Shown one piece after another: positions 9,880 to 64,000 of a stretch of 64,000 bases of DNA. The position numbers and the translations under genes were made by a program. The stretch is from Gammaproteobacteria bacterium (GTDB lineage Bacteria > Pseudomonadota > Gammaproteobacteria > Tethybacterales > G965206325). How positions within the stretch are numbered: the stretch's first letter is position 1; each line of letters begins with the position of its first letter. The notes beneath the pieces are model-generated. The model ran no database searches and was not told the DNA's origin. It was given only the letters and a program-made list of their open reading frames with translations. The stretch is from contig OZ242208.1 of NCBI GenBank assembly GCA_965206325.1, forward strand, positions 1,721,557-1,785,556, given 5' to 3'.

Positions 9880-10827
9880 ATGAAATTCGCCTTTGTTCTG
9901 GATCCGCTGGAATCGCTCAAAGCGCGCAAGGATTCTTCCATTCTGCTGATGCGCGCCGCCGCCAAGGCGGGCGATTCGGTTTTCGCCGTCCCGCACGATT
10001 CGCCGGCGATTGAAAACAGCGCGTCGACATTCTCCGCCATCCATTTGGAATTGCGCGACGACGATTCCAATTGGTTTTCCGTCCTTGAACAAAAACGCCG
10101 CCGCGCGGATTTCTTTGACGCGATTTTTATGCGCAAAGATCCGCCGGTAGACGCCGAATTCATCGCCGCCCTTCACATTCTGCAATTGGCCGAGCAAAGC
10201 GGCGTTCCGGTTTTTAATGCGCCCCGCGCGCTTTTGGAATTGAATGAAAAGATTTCGGCTTTTCGCTTTCCGGATTTAATTCCGCCGTCGCTTGTTTCGC
10301 GCGACAAGGAATCGCTCCTTGCCTTTCATCAAAAAATGGAGGGGGCGGTTTTCAAGCCGCTGGACGGACGCGGCGGACAAGGCATCTTTGTGTCGCCGAA
10401 GGGCGATAAAAATTGCAATGCAATTATAGAAACGCTTTCGCAAAACGGACGGCGAATGATTATCGCTCAGCAGTATTTGCCCGCCATCGCCGACGAAGGC
10501 GACCGACGCGTATTAATAATTGACGGCGAACCCGCCCCTTTTATGCTCGCCCGAATTCCCCGCGACGACGACCATCGCGCAAACTTGGACGCTGGCGGCG
10601 AAGGTCGCGCAATGCCGCTTGGAAATGCCGAGCGCAAAATCGCAGAGAAAGTCGCGCCTTTCCTTGCCGATGCCGGAGTCATTCTGGCGGGCTTGGATGT
10701 TATCGGCGGAAAGTTAACGGAAATAAACATTACAAGCCCCACCTGCCTGCGCGAAATTTTAGATCAAACCAATTACAACGCCGCCGATTTAGTCATCGCC
10801 GCCGCCCGCCGCCAATGCAAAAAATAG
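9880..10827 (+). CDS. gshB: glutathione synthetase (ATP-grasp)
   Basis: 315 aa; N-terminus MKFAFVLDPLESLKARKDSS and ATP-grasp C-terminal half match prokaryotic GshB. Confidence 0.85.
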   Translation: MKFAFVLDPLESLKARKDSSILLMRAAAKAGDSVFAVPHDSPAIENSASTFSAIHLELRDDDSNWFSVLEQKRRRADFFDAIFMRKDPPVDAEFIAALHILQLAEQSGVPVFNAPRALLELNEKISAFRFPDLIPPSLVSRDKESLLAFHQKMEGAVFKPLDGRGGQGIFVSPKGDKNCNAIIETLSQNGRRMIIAQQYLPAIADEGDRRVLIIDGEPAPFMLARIPRDDDHRANLDAGGEGRAMPLGNAERKIAEKVAPFLADAGVILAGLDVIGGKLTEINITSPTCLREILDQTNYNAADLVIAAARRQCKK

Positions 10828-38450: not shown

Positions 38451-39089
38451 ATGAATTCCGCCGACCGCCGAAAAATCTTTGAGCGGCTGCGCGCCGCCAA
38501 TCCCAAACCGACAACGGAATTGCGCTACCGCAATTCCTACCAATTGCTGGTGGCGGTTACTTTGTCCGCGCAGGCGACCGATAAAAGCGTCAATGCGGCG
38601 ACGCTGCCGCTTTTCGCCCGCGTCAAAACGCCCGCCGATATGCTGCGATTCGGCGAGGAAAAATTAAGGGAAAGCGTCCGTACGATTGGGCTTTTTCGGA
38701 CGAAGGCGAAAAATATCGTCGCGGCGGCGAAGATTCTTTTGGAAAAGCACGGCGGCGAAATTCCGCGCGACCGCGAATCGCTGGAATCGCTGCCCGGCGT
38801 CGGCCGCAAAACGGCGAATGTCATTCTCAACACCGCCTTCGGCGAGCCGACCATTGCGGTGGATACGCATATTTTTCGCTTGGCGAATCGCACCGGCATC
38901 GCGCCGGGAAAAAATCCGCGCGAAGTGGAATCGCATTTAGTGAAAGTCGTCCCCGCCGAATTCGCCCGCGACGCCCATCATTGGCTGATTCTGCACGGAC
39001 GCTACATTTGCCAGTCGCGCAAGCCGAAGTGCGCTATTTGCCGCATCGCCGACCTGTGCGAATATCCCGAAAAAACATCGGCGGAATAA
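38451..39089 (+). CDS. nth: endonuclease III
   Basis: HhH-GPD (LPGVGRKTANVIL) and 4Fe-4S CxxxxxxCxxC...C C-terminus. Confidence 0.9.
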   Translation: MNSADRRKIFERLRAANPKPTTELRYRNSYQLLVAVTLSAQATDKSVNAATLPLFARVKTPADMLRFGEEKLRESVRTIGLFRTKAKNIVAAAKILLEKHGGEIPRDRESLESLPGVGRKTANVILNTAFGEPTIAVDTHIFRLANRTGIAPGKNPREVESHLVKVVPAEFARDAHHWLILHGRYICQSRKPKCAICRIADLCEYPEKTSAE

Positions 39090-52287: not shown

Positions 52288-54063
52288 TCACCGATACACC
52301 GGCAGCGGCTGAGCCGCAAATCCGCGCGCTTGATACAATCGCTCCGACAACTCCACCCGAGTCATCCATATTACTAAATCATCATAGATGCCTTGGCTTT
52401 TGAATCCATCGCCGGGATCAATCGCTTCCGAACCCGTCGGCAGCGGCAAATAGCCAATGCGGCCACGCTCCCTCGACGACACCCCACCGGTATCTTGGCG
52501 GTTTCTATTCGCGTCGTCGTTGGCAGCGCCGCCACTAACAGTGTATTCATTCGCCCCGCAGTTGGCTGTGTCAAAGCGAAATGTGTCGGCGACGCGCGCC
52601 GCAATGGCGTTATATCGCTCCAAGCGGCGAAAAGAATCATCCGAGCCCGGATCGGTCGGAGCATTGCATCTCGGCTCGCCCGCCGCTATGGACGATATAT
52701 GATTAATCGCCCCGAATCCATTTTGACCATGCGAAATTACCGCAAAGGGAATTCCATCCGTAACATCGCCTTCCACATTCACTTTCGGCGGCGGCAGCAC
52801 AATGGCGCAGGGACCGCGCGGACTACCGCCGCCCCGCCTTCCGCCGCAGATGTTATTAATAACCGAACCCGCCGCAATTGCTCGCGGGCCGGTATCCAGA
52901 TTAATTCGTCCGCAATCCTGATGGCAAATAATCGGCGGTTCAATTAAATCACCGACAGCGCGAAAGTCCGGAGTGGCCGGCTGCCTGTAAAAAATAACGA
53001 AAAGAGGCGGCGGCGTTATGCCGATGAGTTGCAATTCTCCGTAATCGTTCGACGCAAGGCCAATGTCAATCCTTCGGCCAAAGTCAACAGGGGTGGGGAG
53101 GCCAAATCCATTGCACCGACCAATGCCTCCGCCTCTGCGGCATAACAGAACCTCACTGACATTGAAAGGATTAATAAGGGCTCGGATTTGCACCTGACCC
53201 GGACCATTCGGACAAGTATAAGTAACTGGCGAACTATCAAGGGGATTGAAAGGGCTCCCCTCTCGCCGCCAGCTAATGACGCCCGGATTGCTGGACCGTA
53301 TTTGAATTGTTCCCGATCCGCAATTTGGGTCAACATTAGCAGCGGGGACATCTTGGAAAGGAGCCGGCGTTGGCGGAAAATCCATTGTAAGGCGCGTCGC
53401 CCGGGCTTGATACATTTCGGCGGTGCTTGTTCCGCCGGTGCTGCATCGAGGCACCGCCGCTATCAAACTTGCATCATCCGCCGGGCAAAGCGGCACGCGA
53501 GTTTCAAATTCGTCGGCGCGCGTTTCCGGGCCGAATCCAAGAATGGAATTCGCAAACGCCAAATCCACCCGATAAGTGTAGCGATTGCCCCATTGGTCGG
53601 AGGGCGGCACGCCGAGTGTCGCCCACGGCAAAACGCCGCCGTATTCCATACAGCCGCCCTGTTGAATGAGTTCGAGGGAAGTAAGCGGCCGACTGGGGTC
53701 AGTAGCCGAAGTCGAAATGGGGCTGGTGCCGCGCAAAATATCCACCGGCAGGCGATCTTCCAGACCGTCGCCGTCAATATCCGGACATGGCAGATAAGGG
53801 CGGCCCGCCGGAATTTCGTAGTTAAGTAGGGGGGATGCCACGCTTTGCAGATAGCGGAATTCGGTATTGTGCCGCAGGGCGTAGGCGAAGACGGCTTCGC
53901 GGATTCGCTCTAATTGATTTTGTTCGTCCAGCCGTCCGCCGTCGCGAATTTGAATGCCGAGAGTAAGCAGCGAGCCGCCCAGAATCAAGCCGATGACCGC
54001 CAGCACAATCATCAATTCCACCAGCGTAAATCCCCGCTGTTTTTTCGCCGGCACTGCTGTCAT
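52288..54063 (-). CDS. large type IV pilin-like protein, paralog 1 (591 aa)
   Basis: Prepilin leader and class III signal MTAVPAKKQRG|FTLVELMIVLAVIG. Shares the GRPYLPCPDIDGDGLEDR, WGNRYTYRVD, GFGPETRADEF, VISHGQNG and YDDLVIWM motifs with paralogs 2 and 3. Confidence 0.75.
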   Translation of the reverse strand: MTAVPAKKQRGFTLVELMIVLAVIGLILGGSLLTLGIQIRDGGRLDEQNQLERIREAVFAYALRHNTEFRYLQSVASPLLNYEIPAGRPYLPCPDIDGDGLEDRLPVDILRGTSPISTSATDPSRPLTSLELIQQGGCMEYGGVLPWATLGVPPSDQWGNRYTYRVDLAFANSILGFGPETRADEFETRVPLCPADDASLIAAVPRCSTGGTSTAEMYQARATRLTMDFPPTPAPFQDVPAANVDPNCGSGTIQIRSSNPGVISWRREGSPFNPLDSSPVTYTCPNGPGQVQIRALINPFNVSEVLLCRRGGGIGRCNGFGLPTPVDFGRRIDIGLASNDYGELQLIGITPPPLFVIFYRQPATPDFRAVGDLIEPPIICHQDCGRINLDTGPRAIAAGSVINNICGGRRGGGSPRGPCAIVLPPPKVNVEGDVTDGIPFAVISHGQNGFGAINHISSIAAGEPRCNAPTDPGSDDSFRRLERYNAIAARVADTFRFDTANCGANEYTVSGGAANDDANRNRQDTGGVSSRERGRIGYLPLPTGSEAIDPGDGFKSQGIYDDLVIWMTRVELSERLYQARGFAAQPLPVYR

Positions 54064-54064
54064 T

Positions 54065-55480
54065 TCAGCAATCCACAAAGTTGACCGGCACTTCCACCGC
54101 GTGGACGGCGAGTCCGCCGCGCGATGTTTCCTTGTATTTAATTTTCATATCCTGTCCGGTTTCCCACATGGTTTTAATTACGCGGTCCAGCGAAACGAAA
54201 TGCCCGCCGTCGCCGGCCAAGGCCATTCTGGCGGCGGTAATGGCTTTTGCCGCTCCCATTGCATTCCGCTCAATGCATGGAATTTGGACGAGTCCGGCGA
54301 TGGGATCGCAGGTGAGTCCGAGATGATGCTCCATTGCAATTTCGGCGGCGTTTTCCGCCTGATGCGGCGTGCCGCCCATGGCTTCCGTCAATGCCGCCGC
54401 CGCCATTGAACACGCCGACCCGACTTCGCCCTGACAGCCCACTTCCGCCCCCGAAATGGATGCGTTTTGCTTGCACAGCATTCCAACCGCCGACGACGCC
54501 AGCAGAAAATTCGCGGCGGCGGATTCAGCGTCTTCGCCTTTTTGCGCACGAAAATTCACATAATAATGCAAAACCGCCGGAACGATTCCCGCCGCTCCGT
54601 TGGTCGGTGCAGTGACGACTCGTCCGCCCGCCGCATTTTCTTCATTAACGGCGATGGCGTAAAGCCCCGCCCAATCCATTTCGACGAGCGGGTCGCCCGC
54701 TTTTTGCCGCGCCGTTAATTTTTCATAAAGTCCGCGCGCGCGTCTTTTTACTTTGAGGATGCCCGGCAGAAATTCGTCGTCGCTTTCGCATCCCCGCTTG
54801 ACGCATTCTTGCATCACCCGCCAAATATCCGAAAGCCGTCGGCGAATTTCGGATTCGCCCAAGCGCGATTTTTCATTCGCCAAGACGATTCCGCTTATCG
54901 GCATTCCTTCGGCATCGCAATGCGAAAGCAATTCAGCGGCGGAAGAAAATGAAAACGGCTCCGCATTTTGGGAGGCGGGCTGCGAATCATTCGCCGCTTC
55001 AAACGCCGCTTCGTCCGATACAAATCCGCCGCCGACCGAATAATAGGCGGCGCGACGCAAAATCGCTCCGTTAGAATCCGACGCCGCAAAAATCATTCCG
55101 TTGGGATGATTCGGCAGGGCTTTGCGGAGCATCAGCAAATCCCGCTTTTCGTCAAAGCCGATGGGTTTTTCACCGAGCAGCATTAGCGATTTTTCCGTCC
55201 GAATTTTTTCCAATCGCATCGGAATGACGGCGGGGTCAATTTGGTCGGGCGATTCGCCTTCCAATCCCATCAGCACGGCTTTGTCGCTGCCGTGGCCTTT
55301 GCCGGTCGCTCCCAGCGAGCCGTATAATTCCGCGCGGACATTGGCGGCGTTTGCGAAGAATCCGCCGTCCTTCAGCGAATGCGCGAACATATTCGCCGCC
55401 CGCATCGGGCCGACAGTGTGCGAACTGGACGGGCCAATTCCCACCTTAAACAATTCAAAAACGCTCAGTGCCGACATCAT
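54065..55480 (-). CDS. sdaA: L-serine dehydratase (Fe-S, single chain)
   Basis: [54 protein letters not shown] align with E. coli SdaA; 471 aa. Confidence 0.9.
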
Positions 55481-55483
55481 TAA

Positions 55484-56686
55484 TTATTCCAAGCCGATTC
55501 GCGGAAAATCCTCCGCCGGAAAAACACCGACCCGACTCATTTCGCCCACTAATTCGTCGGCGGAAATCCAGACGACAATATCGTCAAAAACTAATCCGTC
55601 GTCGTCCGTCCAGCCGGATTCCGAATGCGGTCCGGCGTAGAATGAAGATTCCACCCCGTCGGAACCCAACCCGCTGGAAAGGCGAATTTGCAGGCAATTG
55701 TCGCGGGCATTTTCGCGGAATGCATTCTGCCGCTCGGCGTTAAATTCTCTATCCGCAGTCGTGCCGTCCGGAAACGGCGTGCATTCAACTTGCGAATATG
55801 GAAAGCGCCCACCGCGCCCACCCGAATTTTCGGACGCGCCTTCGCCCAAAACGCCGCCGTGACCATTCGGTCCGTGCGACACAATTACCGCCGGCACGCC
55901 GCTGATAATATCGTCTTCGTCGTAGGGGCGAAACGGACGGGATGCCAAAGTAATATTCGCCGTCGCAAAATCCCCGGCGATGACTAAAACATTCGTCGTC
56001 CCCGGATCGCACGGAAAAGCGACGCGAGTCACCGCCCGATTTGGATTCGCCCCGCAAATTGCGCCGGGCGGCGGCGATTCTTCGTTGCCCGACCGCTCTT
56101 GATATTCGGGGTTTGAGCCGGACATTAGCAATTCCCTCCGCAGGTCATACTTGTCGGCGATGGTGCTTTGATTAAATCCAATTAAAGCGTTGGCATAGGC
56201 GGGATCCACCCGATAAGTATATTCCCGCCCCCACCAGTCGGCGGAATACTGCGGCAGATTAAGCGTCCGCCACGGCACGGTGCCTTTGTAATCTTCGCAG
56301 CCGCCGAGGTTGCGGCTGTACACAGTGCTAAAAGCAATGGGGCTGGTAAGATTGTCAAAGGCGAAATCCGTCCGATCCTCCACGCCGTTGCCGTTGACAT
56401 CCGGACACGGCAAATAAGGGCGACCCGCCGGCAAGCGATAAACCGCCCCGCCATTTCTCACCCAGCGGGCGACCGTCCGCTGGCGGCCGGCGTAATCCAG
56501 CATCGCCAATTTGATTTGACGCATCGCATCCTTCACCGACGCTTGATTCTCCACTTCCAGACGGCTGAAGACCGGCACCAACGCTCCGCCGAAAGCAATG
56601 CCGATGACCACCAGCACAATTGCTATTTCCACCATCGTGTAGCCGCGGCTTGCCGATTTTTTTTCGCGCATTTTCATCATCGTCAT
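55484..56686 (-). CDS. large type IV pilin-like protein, paralog 2 (400 aa)
   Basis: Leader ...SASRG|YTMVEIAIVLVVIG, then GRPYLPCPDVNGNGVEDR, WGREYTYRVD, VIVSHGPNGHGG, FDDIVVWI. Confidence 0.75.
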   Translation of the reverse strand: MTMMKMREKKSASRGYTMVEIAIVLVVIGIAFGGALVPVFSRLEVENQASVKDAMRQIKLAMLDYAGRQRTVARWVRNGGAVYRLPAGRPYLPCPDVNGNGVEDRTDFAFDNLTSPIAFSTVYSRNLGGCEDYKGTVPWRTLNLPQYSADWWGREYTYRVDPAYANALIGFNQSTIADKYDLRRELLMSGSNPEYQERSGNEESPPPGAICGANPNRAVTRVAFPCDPGTTNVLVIAGDFATANITLASRPFRPYDEDDIISGVPAVIVSHGPNGHGGVLGEGASENSGGRGGRFPYSQVECTPFPDGTTADREFNAERQNAFRENARDNCLQIRLSSGLGSDGVESSFYAGPHSESGWTDDDGLVFDDIVVWISADELVGEMSRVGVFPAEDFPRIGLE

Positions 56687-57804
56687 GGCCCAAACTGCGA
56701 CAAATTATCCACCGGCAAAACGCCGCTGCGTCCCATTTCCGCAATCAGCGATTCGCCCGACATCCAGCCCACAATGTCGTCGTAAAACCGTTCGTCTCCT
56801 CCGCTTTCCTCCCCGATTCCGCGCGGCGCATCTACAAAATTAATATAATTGTCGCCCCGCAATGTTGTACCCGGATTTTCGCAGGCGAGAGCGTTTAATT
56901 GCTCCAAGCGGTAAAATTCATTATCCAAACGGCTGCACTCCGGTACCTCCACCGGACTCAAAGTAATATGCAAAGCCCCGAAGCCGGCGCCGTTGGGGCC
57001 GTGCGAAACAATTACAAACGCCAAGCCGTCCAGCGTCTCGCCGGGGGCGTATATTTTTCTGACATCTCCATCCGTGATGGTAACGGCGGTTTCAGCGATA
57101 ATGCCCGACACAATTTCGCCGTCGCCGTCGCAGTCCAAATTTCGGCAGACGACTATCGGCAATTCCTCCGTGCCGTTGGAGCCGCTGCGCCGTCGCTCTT
57201 GCGGGACGGTAATGCCGCTGCTGACCGTTAATCTCAACGCCGGATGAAATTTATCCGCGCGCGTTTCCGGGCCGAACCCTAATAGTCCATGCGAATACGC
57301 AATATCCACCCGATAACTGTAAGGATTTCCCCACAAATCGGCGGCGGGAAGTCCGAGAGTCGCCCACGGCAATGCGCCCCAACTTCTATCGCAAAATGCG
57401 CCGCCATCGCCCGGGTCGCCGAATTCGTCCGCCAAACCGCGGCCCGAAGTGGTAGGGGAAATATCAATGACATAAGGCGGCGGGTCTAAGCCTATCCGAT
57501 TTTCCACGCCGTCGCCATCGGTATCCGGACACGGCAAATAAGGGCGGCCGCCCGGCAATTCTTGAACTCTGACGCCGTCGTTCACGGAATATCCTTCGGC
57601 GGTTTGATGCCGCACGGCGTAGGCGGCGACGGCGTTTATCGCGCGCTGAATCGCCTCTTCCGTTTCCTCTTCCCGCTCGTCCCGCTCGCGGGCGGAAAAA
57701 GGAATCAGCGAGCCGCCCAGCAGCAAGCCCAAAACCGCCAAAGCCAAAGCGATTTCCACCAGCGAATAGCCGCGCGAATTACGATGTCCGCCGATTCTTT
57801 TCAT
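56683..57804 (-). CDS. large type IV pilin-like protein, paralog 3 (373 aa)
   Basis: Leader MKRIGGHRNSRG|YSLVEIALALAVLG, then GRPYLPCPDTDGDGVENR, WGNPYSYRVD, VIVSHGPNGAGFG, YDDIVGWM. ATGA overlap with paralog 2. Confidence 0.75.
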   Translation of the reverse strand: MKRIGGHRNSRGYSLVEIALALAVLGLLLGGSLIPFSARERDEREEETEEAIQRAINAVAAYAVRHQTAEGYSVNDGVRVQELPGGRPYLPCPDTDGDGVENRIGLDPPPYVIDISPTTSGRGLADEFGDPGDGGAFCDRSWGALPWATLGLPAADLWGNPYSYRVDIAYSHGLLGFGPETRADKFHPALRLTVSSGITVPQERRRSGSNGTEELPIVVCRNLDCDGDGEIVSGIIAETAVTITDGDVRKIYAPGETLDGLAFVIVSHGPNGAGFGALHITLSPVEVPECSRLDNEFYRLEQLNALACENPGTTLRGDNYINFVDAPRGIGEESGGDERFYDDIVGWMSGESLIAEMGRSGVLPVDNLSQFGP

Positions 57805-57807
57805 TTT

Positions 57808-60800
57808 TCATTGACGCGGACAGGTGGAATCTTCGGGCGCGGGCAGTCCGGTGTCATGGCACAGACGGAAGCGTCCGCCCAGCAGCCGCGCGCGGTCGTT
57901 GCGCACAACCCGATCTATCAGACTGCCCGCGCCGATTTCTAAATCTTCGGCGAATAATTCAAAGACATGGTCGTTGTCCGTATTTTCCTGCGTATCCAAA
58001 TACGCGCACGGATGCCCTGTCGTTATCGGCTCCTGCGCCCGATGCTCGTTTTCCACGCCCTGCAGCGGACGATTTGGATTAAACGCATCCTCCCGCGTCT
58101 GGCTGATGGTACACGACGAATTGCCCGGATTAATACTGCAGCTGCTGACATTATTAAAGGCGGATTGATCCGTAATCGCGCATTCCGTCCTTTCCAGCGG
58201 AGTCAAACTGAAAAACACCGCCGCCTGAACATTGGTAAATTGCGCGCCGCGCTCGCCGAGGCGAATTTCCGTCCCCTTCGGCAATTGCAAAGCGGGCGGC
58301 GCCAGACGCAATTCGCGCCTTGCCTGCGCCGGTGTTTGCACCGGCACAACCGCACCCGCAAATGACCCGCCGCCAATGGACGACGGATCCAAATAAGTTC
58401 CCATTATTGGATTAATCATTCCGCCCCGCGCAAGTTCAAGACCGTTGCCGGTCGCCGGACGAAAAACCGCCCCCTCGCCCAGCAGACGAATCCATACATT
58501 CTGCCGCACCGTAACGCTGGAAAATAACGGAAATGTCGTCACCGGCAACGACGACTCCACCGGCGTGTATATGTGCGGACGAGTCGTCAGCAAATACGGC
58601 ACCGCCGCTTCCGCCAATCGCCTCAAATCAAAATTACCGTCGCTGTTGGTTGCAATATCCAGCGGAGCGGTAATGTTGGTTGTGGCGCCGCCCGCCAGAT
58701 TGCCCCTCGCCTGCACTAATACAGGCGCATTGGAACTCGCCCCCGGCGGTGCCAAAAATGCCGCCCGCGCCACCGTAATAATTACTTCCGCCGGATAAAC
58801 CGACAGCGTGTATTGCTCATCAGTGCCGTCTATCGTCCGCGTTACCGTCACATTGCGGTCGACCTGCCCCGGCACCGGCACCCGATCGCATAGGGGGTTG
58901 AGGGGATCGGCGACGCCATCAATGCATCTGTCAGTGCCAATGGCATCGTTCAGAATACCGTCGCTCTCTAGCAAATTTAGCGGCGCATGCGGCACCAAAT
59001 TGTTAAACGGAAAACCGGGCGAACCAGTGCTATCCGAATCCGCAGTTCTTACCCAAATGGCTTCCGGGTTAGAAGTGCCAAAGTTTGCGGCGACCGCCGT
59101 CGACAAAAACCCCCGCACCAGCACCACCGACACCAGCTGATTGGGATTGGTGAGGGTGACCATCCCGGCGGTCGCTTGAATCGTCCGCTCCGGAATGGCC
59201 GTTGCCCGCGCATGCACATCGTCGCGCGGATGCGCCATTTGAATAGTGGCTGTCTCCGTACCCGTTGCGGTGTAGATAATCCCGCTGGAAATTACAAACG
59301 GCTCGCTGATAACCTGCCACCGGTCTCTTTGCGTAATGCCGCGCAGATAATATTCGGTGACCGAGCGTCCAGGGGGAAAGATTCCGTTGGGTGGTTCGTT
59401 AAGCTGGGAAACAAACCTGTCTTGTCCGTCAGCACCGGGAGCAAGATTAGTCGCTATCACCGTTGGTCCGTTCAAAACATACCGCGGCAGATTACTCGCA
59501 ACCAATTGCGTTTGCGCGTCAATCGGCAGCGGCAGATTCCGCGCCGGCGGCGGCGTGGGAGTGGCGCCCCGAATGGTAACCGTATGGCCGCCGCTCAGAA
59601 CCATTTGATGAATATAGCGCGCCGACCGCATATTAACCCCCGTCAGCGGATTGTCCGGCACTACTGCATTTGCCGCCCCGATGCCGTCAATCACCCATCC
59701 TTCAAACAGATTTGTATCCCAGCCGACAATGCCGTCCGATTCAATTAGAAGGGTGACTTCCCCCCGCGCTGCAATCGTCGGCGAAATATGGGCGGTCAAT
59801 TGCCCGGGTTCTGAAGCCGTCACCGTTGCATTGGGCATCCGAATCAATTCCGCAAACGACGGAAGGCGGCCGATTGGCACAGTCGGCGCGATTCCGCTCG
59901 GATCATTTCCCTGCGAAAATACAATGTTCGTCTCGCTAAATCCGGCTATCAAATTGACATTGGGGGCGGTCGTCTCAATGGACAGTCGAATCACTCCTCC
60001 CGACGGATGCGGCGGCGTAAATGACGCTATGGTGATCGTTAGGGTGGACGACGGATCAAAGTCCATACTGCTCGGAAAGTCGTCGCAATTTGCCGGCGAT
60101 GCCCTCACTTGGCATGTAATCCTCACCGGAAAAGGATTGGAACTTATGCGGTTCTTGTAAATTTCAATCGGCACCGTCCCCGAATTCTGATAAATCAGAT
60201 AATCCACCTGCAAGAATCCAATTTCCACCGGCGTGTTCAGCACTCGAAATTCCGCCCGCTCATGACCCACCGGAGAACCCGACGGCATAACAAACTCCAA
60301 AGCATTGCTGTCGGCGGGTTCTAAGTCATAAGCGACATCCTGCGTCTCAACATTAAAGGCGACGGCCATTTCCAGCGTTAACGCGCGAGTCCCAACCGTC
60401 AAAGTAACTTCCGGCGGCGTCGGCGGCGTGGGGAAAGTAGCGATGATTCCATTTATCGCCAGCGTCAATCCGGCACCGTGGCGCGCCGTCCCCTCAACAC
60501 GGGCAAGCCTAACGACAACTTCCTGCGTTAATGGCGTATTGAGGGCGTAAATCCGCATTCCCGTGCTGCTGATGGAAATAGTCGTAGCATCGCCGCTGAG
60601 ATAGGGAAACGGAATCGCCTGCGATGCCATCGGCGTTGGATTATTATCAAATTCAATGGTGATGTCCGCCTCGCCGATAATCGCCGTTTCTTCGTTGTTG
60701 CCTAACGGCGGCGGAATCGGATCCGGCGGCAATAATTCCACAGCCAACTCTTCGCCGTCAGTGTCGGCGGCGGCGACAAGAACCCACGACGATTCGCTGG

Positions 60801-63800
60801 CATCTCTTTCAATTAATACCGACAGTGAGGTGGCGGTGCTGTAATCGCCGCCGTCAAAGGGGCTTGTGCCGCTGTAATTGACGGTATTGGCATCGCCTAC
60901 AAAACCCATCGTCACCGTTATTGGCCGGCCGACGATGACCGGACGACCGAAAGAATCCATCGTCCGAATCGCCAGCGATAATTCCTGATCCGTCTCGGAA
61001 AGGACAAAATTATTATTGAGGGGATCCACCCGATAGCCATTAGCAAACCATGCGACTTGGGCGTCCCGCCTCGGCTGAGCTTGCGGCTGTTCGCCGGTAA
61101 TTGCCACATTGATCGTCAGCGGCGACGAAGTCCCCGGTGCCAGAGCAAAGTGAGGGGGTGATGTGACTTCGCTGATTTCAATTTGCACCGTGCCCGATGT
61201 TAAAGAATCCACCGTATTGGGATTCGAAAAGATAATGGTTACATGCGTGTTGCCCGTATCTATGTCGTAATTCGCCGCACCGGAAGTCGCCGCCACTTGG
61301 ACGCCATTAACGCTGGCGATAAAATCCCGATTTATTTGCGGACGATTTAGGTCGGTGTCATTAACCGTGTTGGGGGCGTCGCCCGGCAGCGGGCCGACCC
61401 GAATGTTGCCCAAAGATACAGGCCTATTCGGCAATGTGGTGAATGCCAGCAGAACCGTCGCCGGAAAAGTCCGCCGATTAAGTTGAATCAAATTCGGCTG
61501 AGACGCTAAAACCGCCGCGGCTCCGGTGCCGATTCCCATCGGCGGCGGAAGGGTGGACGCCCCTATATTTACTTGGAAAATTCCGGTGCCTTGAACTTCC
61601 AAAACATTCGGCTGCGGCTGAATGGTGAACATTAAATTCGCCGGCCTCGGCGACACAACGCCAAAATAGACAGTCGCAGAGAACCTTTCAACTGCAAGGC
61701 GGGCGGTATAAATGCATTCTCTGAATTCGTTGGCGGTGGTTTGGAAAGAACCCGCCACGACATCGCCCCCCATAATGGTGGCATCGCACACATTGGCATC
61801 CCTTTCAACCGCCCTTATTGACATTATCGGCGCGGCGAGTGCCCTGCCGCCGACGACGGGAATTACAATTGGCAAATCAACCATCACATTGCCCGCCGTT
61901 AAAGAGACATTGGCCGGCGTCCCGACCGTCACCACCGGCAACTGCGAATTAAATATCACCTGCCGAAACCCCGCCAGACGGTAAGCCGAAGGATTGTCTA
62001 CAAATGTCAACACCGCCAATTGGTCTCCGACTTCAAATCTCGGAGCGAATCGCATCTCTCTCCGACCCCGACCATTCGAAAGCCTAATGTTCGCAATTTC
62101 GCAGGCGGTCATTTGCGCAGCCGTGGCAGTATAAGTAAAGACGGTCACCGGCTGCGGAATTTGAAACGAAGTTGTGTCGGCGACGGCGGCGTAGTAGCCG
62201 CTAATCGGACAAATACCCGCCAGCGGATTCGCCCGCAAGGAAAACACCAAATCCAACTGATTGGACAGCGGCCGCCCGACGAGTACTCCTCCTAGATTCG
62301 GCTGGGGGTTAAATGTGGCGGGAACCGGCAAATCGTTCTCTACCGTCAGAGTCAAACCAACCGTCACCGTAAGTGGGGTGGCGGAAAGCGATACAATCGG
62401 TGCATCCGGCACAACCGCAATTGCCGTTTCGCTTTGAAGCGGATTAACCGTGTATGAGCGATTCGGATTGCCCGTATCGTTTCTCCCCGCAAAAGACAGC
62501 GTGACCGTCGATACGGCATTAACTATCGGCAGCAGCGAAAATTCTTGATCCCGCGCAATGATATTCGCCGGCAAAGCGGCGGACACCGGCACTTCGCAGG
62601 AAGTCCCAACGGTGATAATATTCCCAGCAGTAAATGTGACGGTCTCCCGGACAAACCGGCCGGAATAATAAACCCATCCTTCCAGCGGACAATTGCCGCC
62701 GATGCCGCCGATAAGCGGCGCGCGAATTCCAACCCTAATTGGAATCGGCGTAGGCGGAAACAAAGCATTGGACGGACGAGCATTCAAAGTCGCCACTATC
62801 GGCAAATCCGCATTCCTATTATTCACCGCCACCGTCACCGGCGGCTCGCCCCCGACCACGACAGTCCCGACATTCGCCAATCCCGATAACTCCAAGGGCT
62901 GAACGCCGGTGATATCAATGGAAATATCCACGCCGGAACCCAGAGTCGCCGCAAGAACAAACGGAAAGGTTATGTCCGCCGCCCCTACCGGCCGATTAAT
63001 GCGAAATATCGCCGTGCCGTTGACGGGACTCGTATTCGCCACCGGACGATCAATCCTGAATGTCATCCTAGTATCGCCGGTCATCACGGGAATCAAAACC
63101 TCTTGATTGGCAACCGACACAGCCACCCCTCTGCCGTTAATAGTCAGCTGATACTCACTCGCCGGATTCGGGCCGCTGATATAAACCAGCGTGACAGTAT
63201 TAGAATGACCGGTGACAATGGGGCTGGCGCTGGTTTGATAAGTCCATTCCGCTCGTATCGGTCCAAAAAATGGCAGCGAATTAGTCTCTCCGAGGCCCCG
63301 CACTGGCTCCATGCTAAATCCAGTCGCAATCTCCGGCCGACCCGTCGGCGTGGGCGGCCCATCTCCATAAAAAATTTGCCTTTGATTTAGAGCACTGTCG
63401 TCCGGCAGGGTGTATTGGTTTCCGGGAATGGATTCCAGAACCTCCACCCGAAACTCGCGTCCGCCTAAATCTCCATTAACGCCGGCCACATAAATGCTGG
63501 CTGCCGTCGCTCCGAGATTAATCGGAATGCTGCCGACGGCAAAGCATTCGTTGACGCTGCTGTCTTGAGTCGGTGTGCCGAAAGTCGTCATCGACTGCCC
63601 ATTCACCGGCGGAAAATAAACATCGCCGTCCCAATTGCAGTCATCTACATCAGCCGTCGACGGTATCTCCACAACCCGCAAAGCCAACGACACATTCCCT
63701 TGACTAATCGGCGGCGCAAATGTTCCCACGGTGACATAATTCGTCGCCACCAGCGGCAGATAAATTCCCCTGAAGACCGTATGGAGAATACTGCGGTCTG

Positions 63801-64000
63801 TCGTAAACAGAGGCGCCCCCGGATATCGCTGCTCCAAAATCCGAAATGTCACCGGGGTATTGGTCACGCCGCTCAATTCAACAATAGGATCTCCGGCGGC
63901 GTCATTCGGAATAATTAATTGCACTTCGCCTGTGCCGATTCTTGCCGCCCCCGGATTTAAGCGAATGTCCGATGCTCCCGTCGGAATGACAAGATCCGTC
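57808..64000 (-). CDS. giant repetitive secreted/surface protein (>2,060 aa; N-terminus beyond window)
   Basis: Uninterrupted minus-strand frame from the window edge to the stop at 57808. Thr/Val/Pro/Asn/Gly-rich with many ...TVT.../...PVTV... beta-strand-like repeats. Cys-containing C-terminal ~200 aa. Stop is 3 nt from the pilin-like paralog 3 start. Confidence 0.8.
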   Translation of the reverse strand, partial: TDLVIPTGASDIRLNPGAARIGTGEVQLIIPNDAAGDPIVELSGVTNTPVTFRILEQRYPGAPLFTTDRSILHTVFRGIYLPLVATNYVTVGTFAPPISQGNVSLALRVVEIPSTADVDDCNWDGDVYFPPVNGQSMTTFGTPTQDSSVNECFAVGSIPINLGATAASIYVAGVNGDLGGREFRVEVLESIPGNQYTLPDDSALNQRQIFYGDGPPTPTGRPEIATGFSMEPVRGLGETNSLPFFGPIRAEWTYQTSASPIVTGHSNTVTLVYISGPNPASEYQLTINGRGVAVSVANQEVLIPVMTGDTRMTFRIDRPVANTSPVNGTAIFRINRPVGAADITFPFVLAATLGSGVDISIDITGVQPLELSGLANVGTVVVGGEPPVTVAVNNRNADLPIVATLNARPSNALFPPTPIPIRVGIRAPLIGGIGGNCPLEGWVYYSGRFVRETVTFTAGNIITVGTSCEVPVSAALPANIIARDQEFSLLPIVNAVSTVTLSFAGRNDTGNPNRSYTVNPLQSETAIAVVPDAPIVSLSATPLTVTVGLTLTVENDLPVPATFNPQPNLGGVLVGRPLSNQLDLVFSLRANPLAGICPISGYYAAVADTTSFQIPQPVTVFTYTATAAQMTACEIANIRLSNGRGRREMRFAPRFEVGDQLAVLTFVDNPSAYRLAGFRQVIFNSQLPVVTVGTPANVSLTAGNVMVDLPIVIPVVGGRALAAPIMSIRAVERDANVCDATIMGGDVVAGSFQTTANEFRECIYTARLAVERFSATVYFGVVSPRPANLMFTIQPQPNVLEVQGTGIFQVNIGASTLPPPMGIGTGAAAVLASQPNLIQLNRRTFPATVLLAFTTLPNRPVSLGNIRVGPLPGDAPNTVNDTDLNRPQINRDFIASVNGVQVAATSGAANYDIDTGNTHVTIIFSNPNTVDSLTSGTVQIEISEVTSPPHFALAPGTSSPLTINVAITGEQPQAQPRRDAQVAWFANGYRVDPLNNNFVLSETDQELSLAIRTMDSFGRPVIVGRPITVTMGFVGDANTVNYSGTSPFDGGDYSTATSLSVLIERDASESSWVLVAAADTDGEELAVELLPPDPIPPPLGNNEETAIIGEADITIEFDNNPTPMASQAIPFPYLSGDATTISISSTGMRIYALNTPLTQEVVVRLARVEGTARHGAGLTLAINGIIATFPTPPTPPEVTLTVGTRALTLEMAVAFNVETQDVAYDLEPADSNALEFVMPSGSPVGHERAEFRVLNTPVEIGFLQVDYLIYQNSGTVPIEIYKNRISSNPFPVRITCQVRASPANCDDFPSSMDFDPSSTLTITIASFTPPHPSGGVIRLSIETTAPNVNLIAGFSETNIVFSQGNDPSGIAPTVPIGRLPSFAELIRMPNATVTASEPGQLTAHISPTIAARGEVTLLIESDGIVGWDTNLFEGWVIDGIGAANAVVPDNPLTGVNMRSARYIHQMVLSGGHTVTIRGATPTPPPARNLPLPIDAQTQLVASNLPRYVLNGPTVIATNLAPGADGQDRFVSQLNEPPNGIFPPGRSVTEYYLRGITQRDRWQVISEPFVISSGIIYTATGTETATIQMAHPRDDVHARATAIPERTIQATAGMVTLTNPNQLVSVVLVRGFLSTAVAANFGTSNPEAIWVRTADSDSTGSPGFPFNNLVPHAPLNLLESDGILNDAIGTDRCIDGVADPLNPLCDRVPVPGQVDRNVTVTRTIDGTDEQYTLSVYPAEVIITVARAAFLAPPGASSNAPVLVQARGNLAGGATTNITAPLDIATNSDGNFDLRRLAEAAVPYLLTTRPHIYTPVESSLPVTTFPLFSSVTVRQNVWIRLLGEGAVFRPATGNGLELARGGMINPIMGTYLDPSSIGGGSFAGAVVPVQTPAQARRELRLAPPALQLPKGTEIRLGERGAQFTNVQAAVFFSLTPLERTECAITDQSAFNNVSSCSINPGNSSCTISQTREDAFNPNRPLQGVENEHRAQEPITTGHPCAYLDTQENTDNDHVFELFAEDLEIGAGSLIDRVVRNDRARLLGGRFRLCHDTGLPAPEDSTCPRQ

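Follow-up and report, generated by a model that had tools for sequence, protein, structure and literature searches.

GspH-I-J-K of type II secretion, and FimU-PilV-W-X and PilH-I-J-K of type IVa pili, are minor-pilin sets encoded by four adjacent pilin-like genes, of which the only one whose product lacks glutamate at position 5 (Glu5) is by far the largest. The large member, of the GspK/PilX family, is a pilin-like protein with a hydrophobic residue at +5 that occurs once per minor-pilin set (PMC5207764) and takes the first, most apical position of the filament (PMC5207764, PMC12918778). CpaL and MshQ provide precedents both for joining a large tip domain to a pilin module and for closing the K-type sheet with a C-terminal strand (PMC12918778, PMC11870444). 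Here we analyze a 64,000-nucleotide stretch of a gammaproteobacterium of the order Tethybacterales (assembly GCA_965206325.1, contig OZ242208.1, positions 1,721,557 to 1,785,556), hereafter the window, in which positions 52288-64000 hold five minus-strand genes for a giant protein, three pilin-like proteins and an L-serine ammonia-lyase (SdaA). The four pilin-like genes resemble the known sets in being neighbors and in that the sole Glu5-less product, the giant, is by far the largest. We consider it reasonably probable that the giant and the three paralogs are a minor-pilin tip/priming set of a type IV filament, with a giant variable adhesin fused onto its K-type subunit.

The giant open reading frame (ORF; 57808..>64000, minus strand) comes first in the operon. 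Its frame is open to base 63999, so the gene runs past the window edge, with the C-terminal 2,063 codons of this Glu5-less K-type pilin-like protein inside the window and ~10.6 kb outside it, for a total of ~5,600 aa; the protein has 5,589 and 5,622 aa in two near-identical closed genomes. There follow on the same strand a 373-aa pilin-like protein (56683-57804), a 400-aa pilin-like protein (55484-56686), sdaA (54065-55480, 471 aa) and a 591-aa pilin-like protein, counted from its ATG (52288-54063). Taken in this order, the first two genes are 3 nt apart, the next pair overlaps by 4 nt (ATGA), and the last two junctions leave 3 nt and 1 nt between the genes. Thus, both the close packing of the five genes and the length of more than 2,060 aa given for the giant by the original prediction, an earlier reading of this DNA alone, hold. 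Scans for promoters and terminators gave sites no more frequently than in shuffled sequence and therefore transcript boundaries are not claimed.

The three pilin-like proteins are, as had been predicted, prepilin-type proteins of unusual length (373-591 aa, two to four times the normal size) with sites of the form G↓F/Y-x-L/M-V-E (the arrow marks the cleavage-type site). As in the core minor-pilin complexes, their leaders are short, basic and end in Gly: MTAVPAKKQRG↓FTLVE in the 591-aa protein, ...KKSASRG↓YTMVE in the 400-aa protein and MKRIGGHRNSRG↓YSLVE in the 373-aa protein, where the site reads RG↓YSLVE. Scores of the 591-, 400- and 373-aa proteins were 36.2, 21.0 and 22.6 bits with the N_methyl model PF07963 (cut-off 21.2, so the 400-aa protein is just below it) and 30.1, 19.5 and 16.5 bits with TIGR02532 (cut-off 16.3), all matches being limited to the N-termini. 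Upon alignment the three proved to be paralogs of ~36% identity that have in common the motifs RPYLPCPD-x-DGDG-x-ED-R, LPW-x-TLG, YRVD, SHGxNG and DD(I/L)V-x-W, separated by inserts of differing length. The 591-aa paralog has a ~200-aa lineage-specific insert between its conserved N-terminal half and the SHGQNG motif. Across 44 diverse pilin-like homologs G15 and E20 (Gly-1 and Glu5) are invariant. A protein 100% identical to the 400-aa paralog is encoded in closed genomes from one ENA metagenome; exact look-up of the 373-aa paralog gave no record because that gene is strain-variable.

The N-terminus of the giant, which the original prediction had marked for inspection, is pilin-like. In a near-identical genome (locus L004, where the giant lies downstream of clpB) it reads ...RRGERG↓YVHIIFVLFTILGVALWG, followed by LLPCPD, GRLPW and LWYALS, and the sites in four genomes, RG↓YVHII (the near-identical genome) and RG↓FVQIL, RG↓FIHIL and RG↓FVHVL (three other genera), all have Gly at -1, a hydrophobic residue at +5 and no Glu5. 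Comparison by hhalign of the giant N-termini with residues 5-172 of the pilin-like family gave a probability of 96% (E 5e-9), and a single-sequence profile run against the same family gave 90% (E 1.6e-6). Judged by these alignments the giant belongs among the pilin-like proteins, as one of the Glu5-less tip type, and its N-terminal domain is homologous to the three paralogs. In L004, a linear contig of 13x coverage, a single in-frame stop at 9990-10003 splits the giant into 2,238 and 3,378 aa; either a sequencing error or a knock-out in this strain could account for it, and in the two closed sister genomes the giant is intact.

Between genera the giant is conserved in only three stretches, residues ~66-550, near 1440-1980 and the last ~220. 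When the full giant was searched by tblastn against 10 Tethybacterales loci, residues 5379-5600 were recovered in nearly all. The conserved C-terminal domain, at 57808..58524 in the window, carries the motifs AAVFFSLTP, HPCAYLD.QENTDND and LLGGRFRL. Described tip subunits share part of this plan: the Caulobacter Tad-pilus protein CpaL (~600 aa, in which a von Willebrand factor A (vWA) domain is joined to the pilin module) and the modular pilins PilB/PilC of Streptococcus sanguinis have an N-terminal pilin module that bears a large tip module. In CpaL, moreover, a dispensable middle lies between the pilin module and a sheet-completing C-terminal element, and the giant likewise has conserved ends and a variable middle. 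In contrast to these, the graft of the giant is ~5,000 aa and has no vWA, lectin or other Pfam match, and the filament class differs.

Relatives of the giant with a short middle were found in a search with its N-terminal 600 aa, which gave ~50 proteins of 760-900 aa, many on ~2-Mb contigs. These K-like paralogs have N- and C-terminal domains of the giant type; ~400 aa are common to the N-termini (hhalign E 5e-48) and ~100 aa to the C-termini (probability 99.8%, E 6e-30), including the motif C-x-WLDD-x-EN-x-DGD ... LLGG of the ~830-aa paralog and the giant. An AlphaFold2 (AF2) model of one ~870-aa paralog (predicted local distance difference test score 84, predicted template-modeling score 0.85) has a 58-residue N-terminal helix followed mostly by beta-strands, and the last residues of the P0130 model are beta-strands. 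The modeled structures thus weakly, yet consistently, suggest a pilin fold, with the alpha1 helix and beta-sheet of the core minor-pilin complexes; the other parts have no known fold or family. Note that ~830-870-aa K-like paralogs are also found as stand-alone genes at L051 10001-12484 and L052 10001-12613, in genomes of ~1.4-2 Mb that are probably Tethybacterales. At both of the loci checked the gene lies alone, surrounded by housekeeping genes, and neither pilin nor machine genes are close by. This is a sizeable, uncharacterised protein family: in a profile search of 1.84 billion entries, 242 cluster representatives reached E <= 1e-30 and 2,542 reached E <= 1e-10.

None of the named pilin families claims these proteins. 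With the GspH model TIGR01708 (cut-off 80) the 591-, 400- and 373-aa paralogs scored 29.7, 18.1 and 15.3 bits and matched only model positions 1-39/62 of 169, and GspG and the other named-pilin models were far under cut-off and matched the N-terminal helix only. In Pfam and NCBIfam scans no MSHA (mannose-sensitive hemagglutinin) minor-pilin or MshQ family matched any of the five proteins, and nothing matched the giant (window fragment and N-terminal 800 aa); Pfam, including the PilC/PilY1 beta-propeller, gave no match in a 2,038-aa window fragment of it. The GspK/T2SSK and PilX models did not match the N-terminal 800 aa of the giant, a 922-aa Azospira protein or P0144. Foldseek found no match in the PDB for a model of the 400-aa paralog, and profile searches of both families against PDB sequences gave at most the generic pilin N-terminal helix. 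According to the original prediction, homology over the full length to PilV/W/X, MshO/P/Q or PilY1 would have made this a known minor-pilin/tip-adhesin operon, but no such homology was found; beyond the N-terminal helix the paralogs match no characterised minor-pilin family. The concept is close to CpaL, PilK plus PilY1, and MshP plus MshQ; every sequence-membership test for those families failed. The operon also differs from the core minor-pilin complexes in that its Glu5-bearing subunits are mutually paralogous and enlarged.

These searches bear on the view that the four proteins form a type II secretion system (T2SS)-like pseudopilus, a short periplasmic piston tip after the manner of GspH-I-J-K, with the giant as plug or length control rather than adhesin. 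In one source a homolog bears the label 'T2SS GspH family', EpsG is among the best fold matches, our own reading of the alignment sees a motif likeness to GspG, and GspK is bulky and has been proposed to stall at the secretin (PMC5207764). However, the GspH and GspG matches are the subthreshold, helix-only ones just given, and five thousand extra residues have no obvious use in a piston; together with the cluster and variation data given below this leads us to regard a pseudopilus as quite improbable.

The tip-set reading draws on conservation across the order. A search for the motif set in other genomes, proposed with the original prediction, found the giant and three pilin-like genes, in that order, in at least 10 Tethybacterales genomes. 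The giant has 2,579 aa (Tethybacter, complete), 3,093, 4,891 and 5,622 aa in different genomes and is mostly intact, although fragmented in the Zeuxoniibacter assembly; giants of 2,579-5,622 aa thus stand against adjacent same-strand pilin-like neighbors of 360-590 aa. All full-length relatives in a species-representative genome set belong to Tethybacterales or probably related metagenome-assembled genomes (MAGs), including Zeuxoniibacter, Persebacter, Tethybacter, Amphirhobacter and AqS2, and the few named homologs are from Candidatus Persebacteraceae / Doriopsillibacter. Taken with an ankyrin-repeat protein in the window, described below, these relatives assign it to a lineage of sponge symbionts with a ~2-Mb genome. 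A protein search with the 2,063-aa fragment gave at least two close relatives among the matches listed. In a crude tree the three paralogs sort by operon position within two clades, which argues that the triplication is old and that the three copies are probably non-redundant; the window copies do not sort cleanly. One locus that is probably from Tethybacterales (L015 11488-18333) has a Glu5-bearing paralog (GG↓FTIVE) of 2,281 aa and therefore gigantism is not restricted to the K-type subunit.

The embedded sdaA is a full-length gene (TIGR00720, 667 bits against a cut-off of 345; PF03313 and PF03315). The original prediction was right that an intact sdaA lies between pilin-like genes, but its place in the module did not stand, since sdaA is inside the operon only in the species cluster of the window (L001-L004, L053) and not in the other Tethybacterales examined (L005-L019, L054). 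A functional part for SdaA in the module was ruled out because it is missing from the operon in the genomes examined outside this cluster. Elsewhere the gene after the third paralog is mostly nth, with other genes in some genomes. In the window nth (endonuclease III; 38451-39089, plus strand) lies 13 kb from the operon, unlike in many other Tethybacterales, which indicates a rearrangement in this lineage. From this gene order sdaA is a metabolic passenger that arrived with the local rearrangement.

Short versions of the module are found outside the symbionts. Among free-living Betaproteobacteria, a search with the RPYLPCPD motif located ~30 loci (in Azospira, Dechloromonas, Thiobacillaceae, Methylophilaceae, Gallionella and Sulfuricella), where the pilin-like homolog is a single protein of 228-246 aa (~235). 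Ahead of it, many of the loci encode a Glu5-less protein (324-922 aa) with the motifs LPCPD / GRLPW / LWYALS and an N-terminus of the form G↓AALLL, G↓VALLL or G↓AVTIL. The surrounding genes run in the order AAA_22, secretin (Secretin_N_2), tetratricopeptide repeat (TPR) protein, MshEN ATPase, T2SSF platform, three proteins, K-like protein and ~235-aa pilin-like protein; the ATPase carries the MshEN domain and a cyclic di-GMP (c-di-GMP)-binding motif, and a ~220-aa major pilin lies a few kb downstream of the K-like/pilin-like pair. The three proteins between platform and K-like gene are conserved (~500, ~200 and ~180 aa; L035 4674-7351, also L024, L031, L036 and L041) and have no significant Pfam or NCBIfam match; they may be equivalents of the alignment-complex proteins (PilM-P / MshI-K).

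By its gene content the free-living cluster is an MSHA-like type IV pilus cluster, sharing with the mshD-O-P-Q context of Vibrio cholerae the MshEN ATPase, T2SSF, Secretin_N_2 secretin, TPR and AAA proteins, with a gene order unlike that of the Vibrio locus. Conversely, only these short free-living homologs have such a context (MshE, MshG, MshL, MshN), which is absent from the window and the symbiont loci. The symbiont module would descend from the two-gene pair of this cluster, the Glu5-less 324-922-aa protein plus the ~235-aa pilin-like protein, and by sequence comparison the three paralogs derive from one ancestral gene of ~235 aa. The ancestral cluster, with its MshE-type ATPase and own major pilin, is pilus-like rather than gspC-M-like, which argues against a pseudopilus. 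The statement that the architecture is undescribed is therefore true of family membership, but not of relatives.

Variation was assessed by comparing the window with three co-occurring near-identical strains, as ratios of nonsynonymous to synonymous changes (dN/dS or pN/pS, for substitutions or polymorphisms). The housekeeping neighbors and sdaA have 98-100% amino acid identity and ratios of 0.04-0.19 (sdaA pN/pS 0.04-0.11). Over its 2,063 codons the giant has 93-97% identity and ratios of 1.4-1.9; its pN/pS of 1.74-1.86 differs from neutrality with a binomial p of ~0.003-0.004 in two comparisons. Identity is 79-96% for the 591-aa paralog (0.7-2.9) and 84-92% for the 373-aa paralog (~0.7-0.8), and the 400-aa paralog is identical between strains, so that no ratio applies. 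Differences are confined to patches, in which a 300-nt segment can have as many as 30% mismatches in addition to indels, with kilobases nearly without change between them. In the giant the hypervariable patches are at 58850-59451, 62450-62751 and 63350-63924; the first has 29-36 mismatches plus indels per 300 nt against L001/L002, whereas 60051-62451 has 0-1 per 300 nt. Compared with L002, the hypervariable insert of the 591-aa paralog (52907-53760) reaches 91 mismatches and 36 gap columns in 300 nt between identical flanks, and the variable region of the 373-aa paralog is at ~56760-57654. Indels in the patches keep the giant frame open across all 2,063 codons.

The mosaic suggests that diverged cassettes are exchanged, that exposed inserts are under diversifying selection, or both. 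A pN/pS above 1 in patches that lie beside neighbors at 0.04-0.19 fits an exposed surface and would be unexpected in a periplasmic part such as a piston tip. Mutagenesis by a diversity-generating retroelement (DGR) was ruled out as the source of the patches, the substitution spectrum not being adenine-biased. The mosaic also argues against the idea that the operon now has no function and is, in this reduced genome, a decaying relic of the ancestral pilus cluster. A relic would fit the unlinked machinery, the stop in low-coverage L004 and the fragmented Zeuxoniibacter giant, and relaxed constraint could be part of the reason for ratios near or above 1. However, frames of 2,500-5,600 codons are intact in most genomes across the order, the motifs are invariant, the variation is limited to patches with identical kilobases between and frame-preserving indels, and the tight gene spacing is consistent with translational coupling. 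A relic is thus very improbable.

The giant had been taken for a repetitive, beta-repeat adhesin-like protein and this did not hold. BLASTP of the 5,616-aa giant against itself gave the self match alone, even at E=10 and word size 2, Tandem Repeats Finder (TRF) detected no tandem arrays, and at the DNA level nothing repeats except the conserved motifs that the three pilin-like genes have in common. Together with the lack of Pfam domains, this rules out a repeat-type adhesin. The protein is rich in T, V, P, G, A and N, and its fragment has 2 Lys in 2,063 residues (0.1%), compared with 0.7-1.8% in the three pilin-like proteins and 2.4-8.5% in other checked window proteins; Arg is normal. Low lysine is family-wide, with <1% in the short free-living homologs and low values also in most giants of other genera. 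In size, and in its likely surface exposure and adhesive role, the giant resembles the LapA/Bap/RTX giant adhesins, but it has no tandem Ig-like/cadherin repeats or RTX motifs, and its anchor is pilin-like instead of a type I secretion system retention module. Like MshQ and PilY1/PilC it is a large, likely tip adhesin encoded beside minor pilins. Unlike it, MshQ and PilY1 are non-pilin proteins of ~1,100-1,200 aa that dock onto a K-type pilin, whereas here the large protein is the K-type pilin; PilY1/PilC have a Sec signal and the giant a pilin-like N-terminus.

In the tip-set reading a prepilin peptidase encoded elsewhere would cleave all four proteins. The three paralogs keep the Gly-1/Glu5 signature and the giant has a similar anchor with a hydrophobic +5, as in an apical subunit of the GspK/PilX/CpaL type. 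After assembling in the inner membrane, the four would nucleate a filament on a type IV pilus machine whose genes lie elsewhere, and would end at the filament tip. The ~5,000 extra residues of the giant, between pilin module and conserved C-terminal domain, would be a strain-variable adhesin or host-recognition surface. Of the two roles first proposed for such a tip or pseudopilus module, display or export of the giant, the tip module is the best reading, but the giant would not be a separate cargo since it is itself pilin-like.

Several points weigh against this reading. The likeness to four-subunit tip complexes is an analogy from structural reasoning, as the paralogs share one ancestor and are not of the GspH/I/J type. 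The K-type gene is 5' in the set here, first instead of last, but 3' in the T2SS and Gram-positive sets, and its product is ~20 times larger than GspK. A folded protein of ~590 kDa would be too big for the secretin channel unless it were a thin elongated fiber. The N-terminus was read in sister genomes, the window itself holding C-terminal codons only. The serving machine would have to lie elsewhere in this genome, and no machine genes were found within 10 kb of the operon in ~16 symbiont loci (by tblastn for ATPase and platform, by annotation otherwise). In agreement with the original prediction, the window contains no T2SSE ATPase, T2SSF platform, secretin or prepilin peptidase, as judged from tblastn, the L001 gene table and Pfam scans of the large ORFs (>=180 aa) on either side of the interval 10.9-12.3 kb.

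That no machinery adjoins the operon in any symbiont locus is also what would be expected of a filament-independent envelope structure, in which four bitopic inner-membrane proteins use their N-terminal helices, cleaved or not, as anchors. The giant would span or fill the periplasm or cell surface without a pilus machine and the pilin-like N-termini would be an evolutionary leftover. The solitary ~830-aa K-like paralog among housekeeping genes, the reduced (~2 Mb) genomes and a size that makes secretin passage hard to picture speak for such a structure. Nevertheless, a Gly-1/Glu5 pair invariant in 44 family members is hard to explain for a mere anchor, the split into Glu5-less and Glu5-bearing proteins mirrors tip complexes, and the strong patch diversification fits extracellular exposure. 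Moreover, a type IVa pilus (T4aP) system was reported by TXSScan in a Tethybacterales MAG (PMC12625764), the one statement on pili, secretion or the operon in the Tethybacterales papers searched. We think an envelope structure unlikely.

There is a bolder version of the tip-set reading. The giant would be a ~590-kDa, essentially lysine-free, non-repetitive chain, covalently on a K-type pilin module, that a type IV machine encoded elsewhere threads out as an elongated fiber; the three enlarged paralogs, and not a classical major pilin, would form a short stalk, and cassette-like patches swapped among co-resident strains would set sponge-host recognition or phage escape. As a whole, paralog stalk and exchanged patches included, this remains doubtful. 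If true, no other pilin-type protein would come near the giant in size, and it would be a symbiont counterpart of the antigenically variable pili.

The remaining large ORFs of the window are housekeeping or transport genes, plus one 502-aa ankyrin-repeat protein (19107-20615, plus strand; Ank, 219 bits) among ABC (ATP-binding cassette)-transporter genes, which is of the eukaryote-like type typical of sponge symbionts. A 515-aa ORF without Pfam match (15843-17390, minus strand) partly overlaps the start of an opposite-strand ABC-transporter ATPase ORF (16926-18014) and is a candidate coding ORF only.

A K-type pilin of 2,500-5,600 aa tests the limits of tip-complex and secretin-passage models, and also tests the recent idea that, as in CpaL, a large tip adhesin and a K-type pilin may be parts of a single chain. 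A tractable experimental route is offered by the two-gene version of free-living bacteria, which lies within an uncharacterised MSHA-like cluster in cultured Azospira and in relatives such as Thiobacillus and Dechloromonas; the cluster was read in Azospira sp. I13 and in a Thiobacillus denitrificans MAG. Attachment and host recognition by sponge symbionts are largely unexplained, and an order-wide, strain-variable, pilin-anchored giant is a concrete candidate for the interface.

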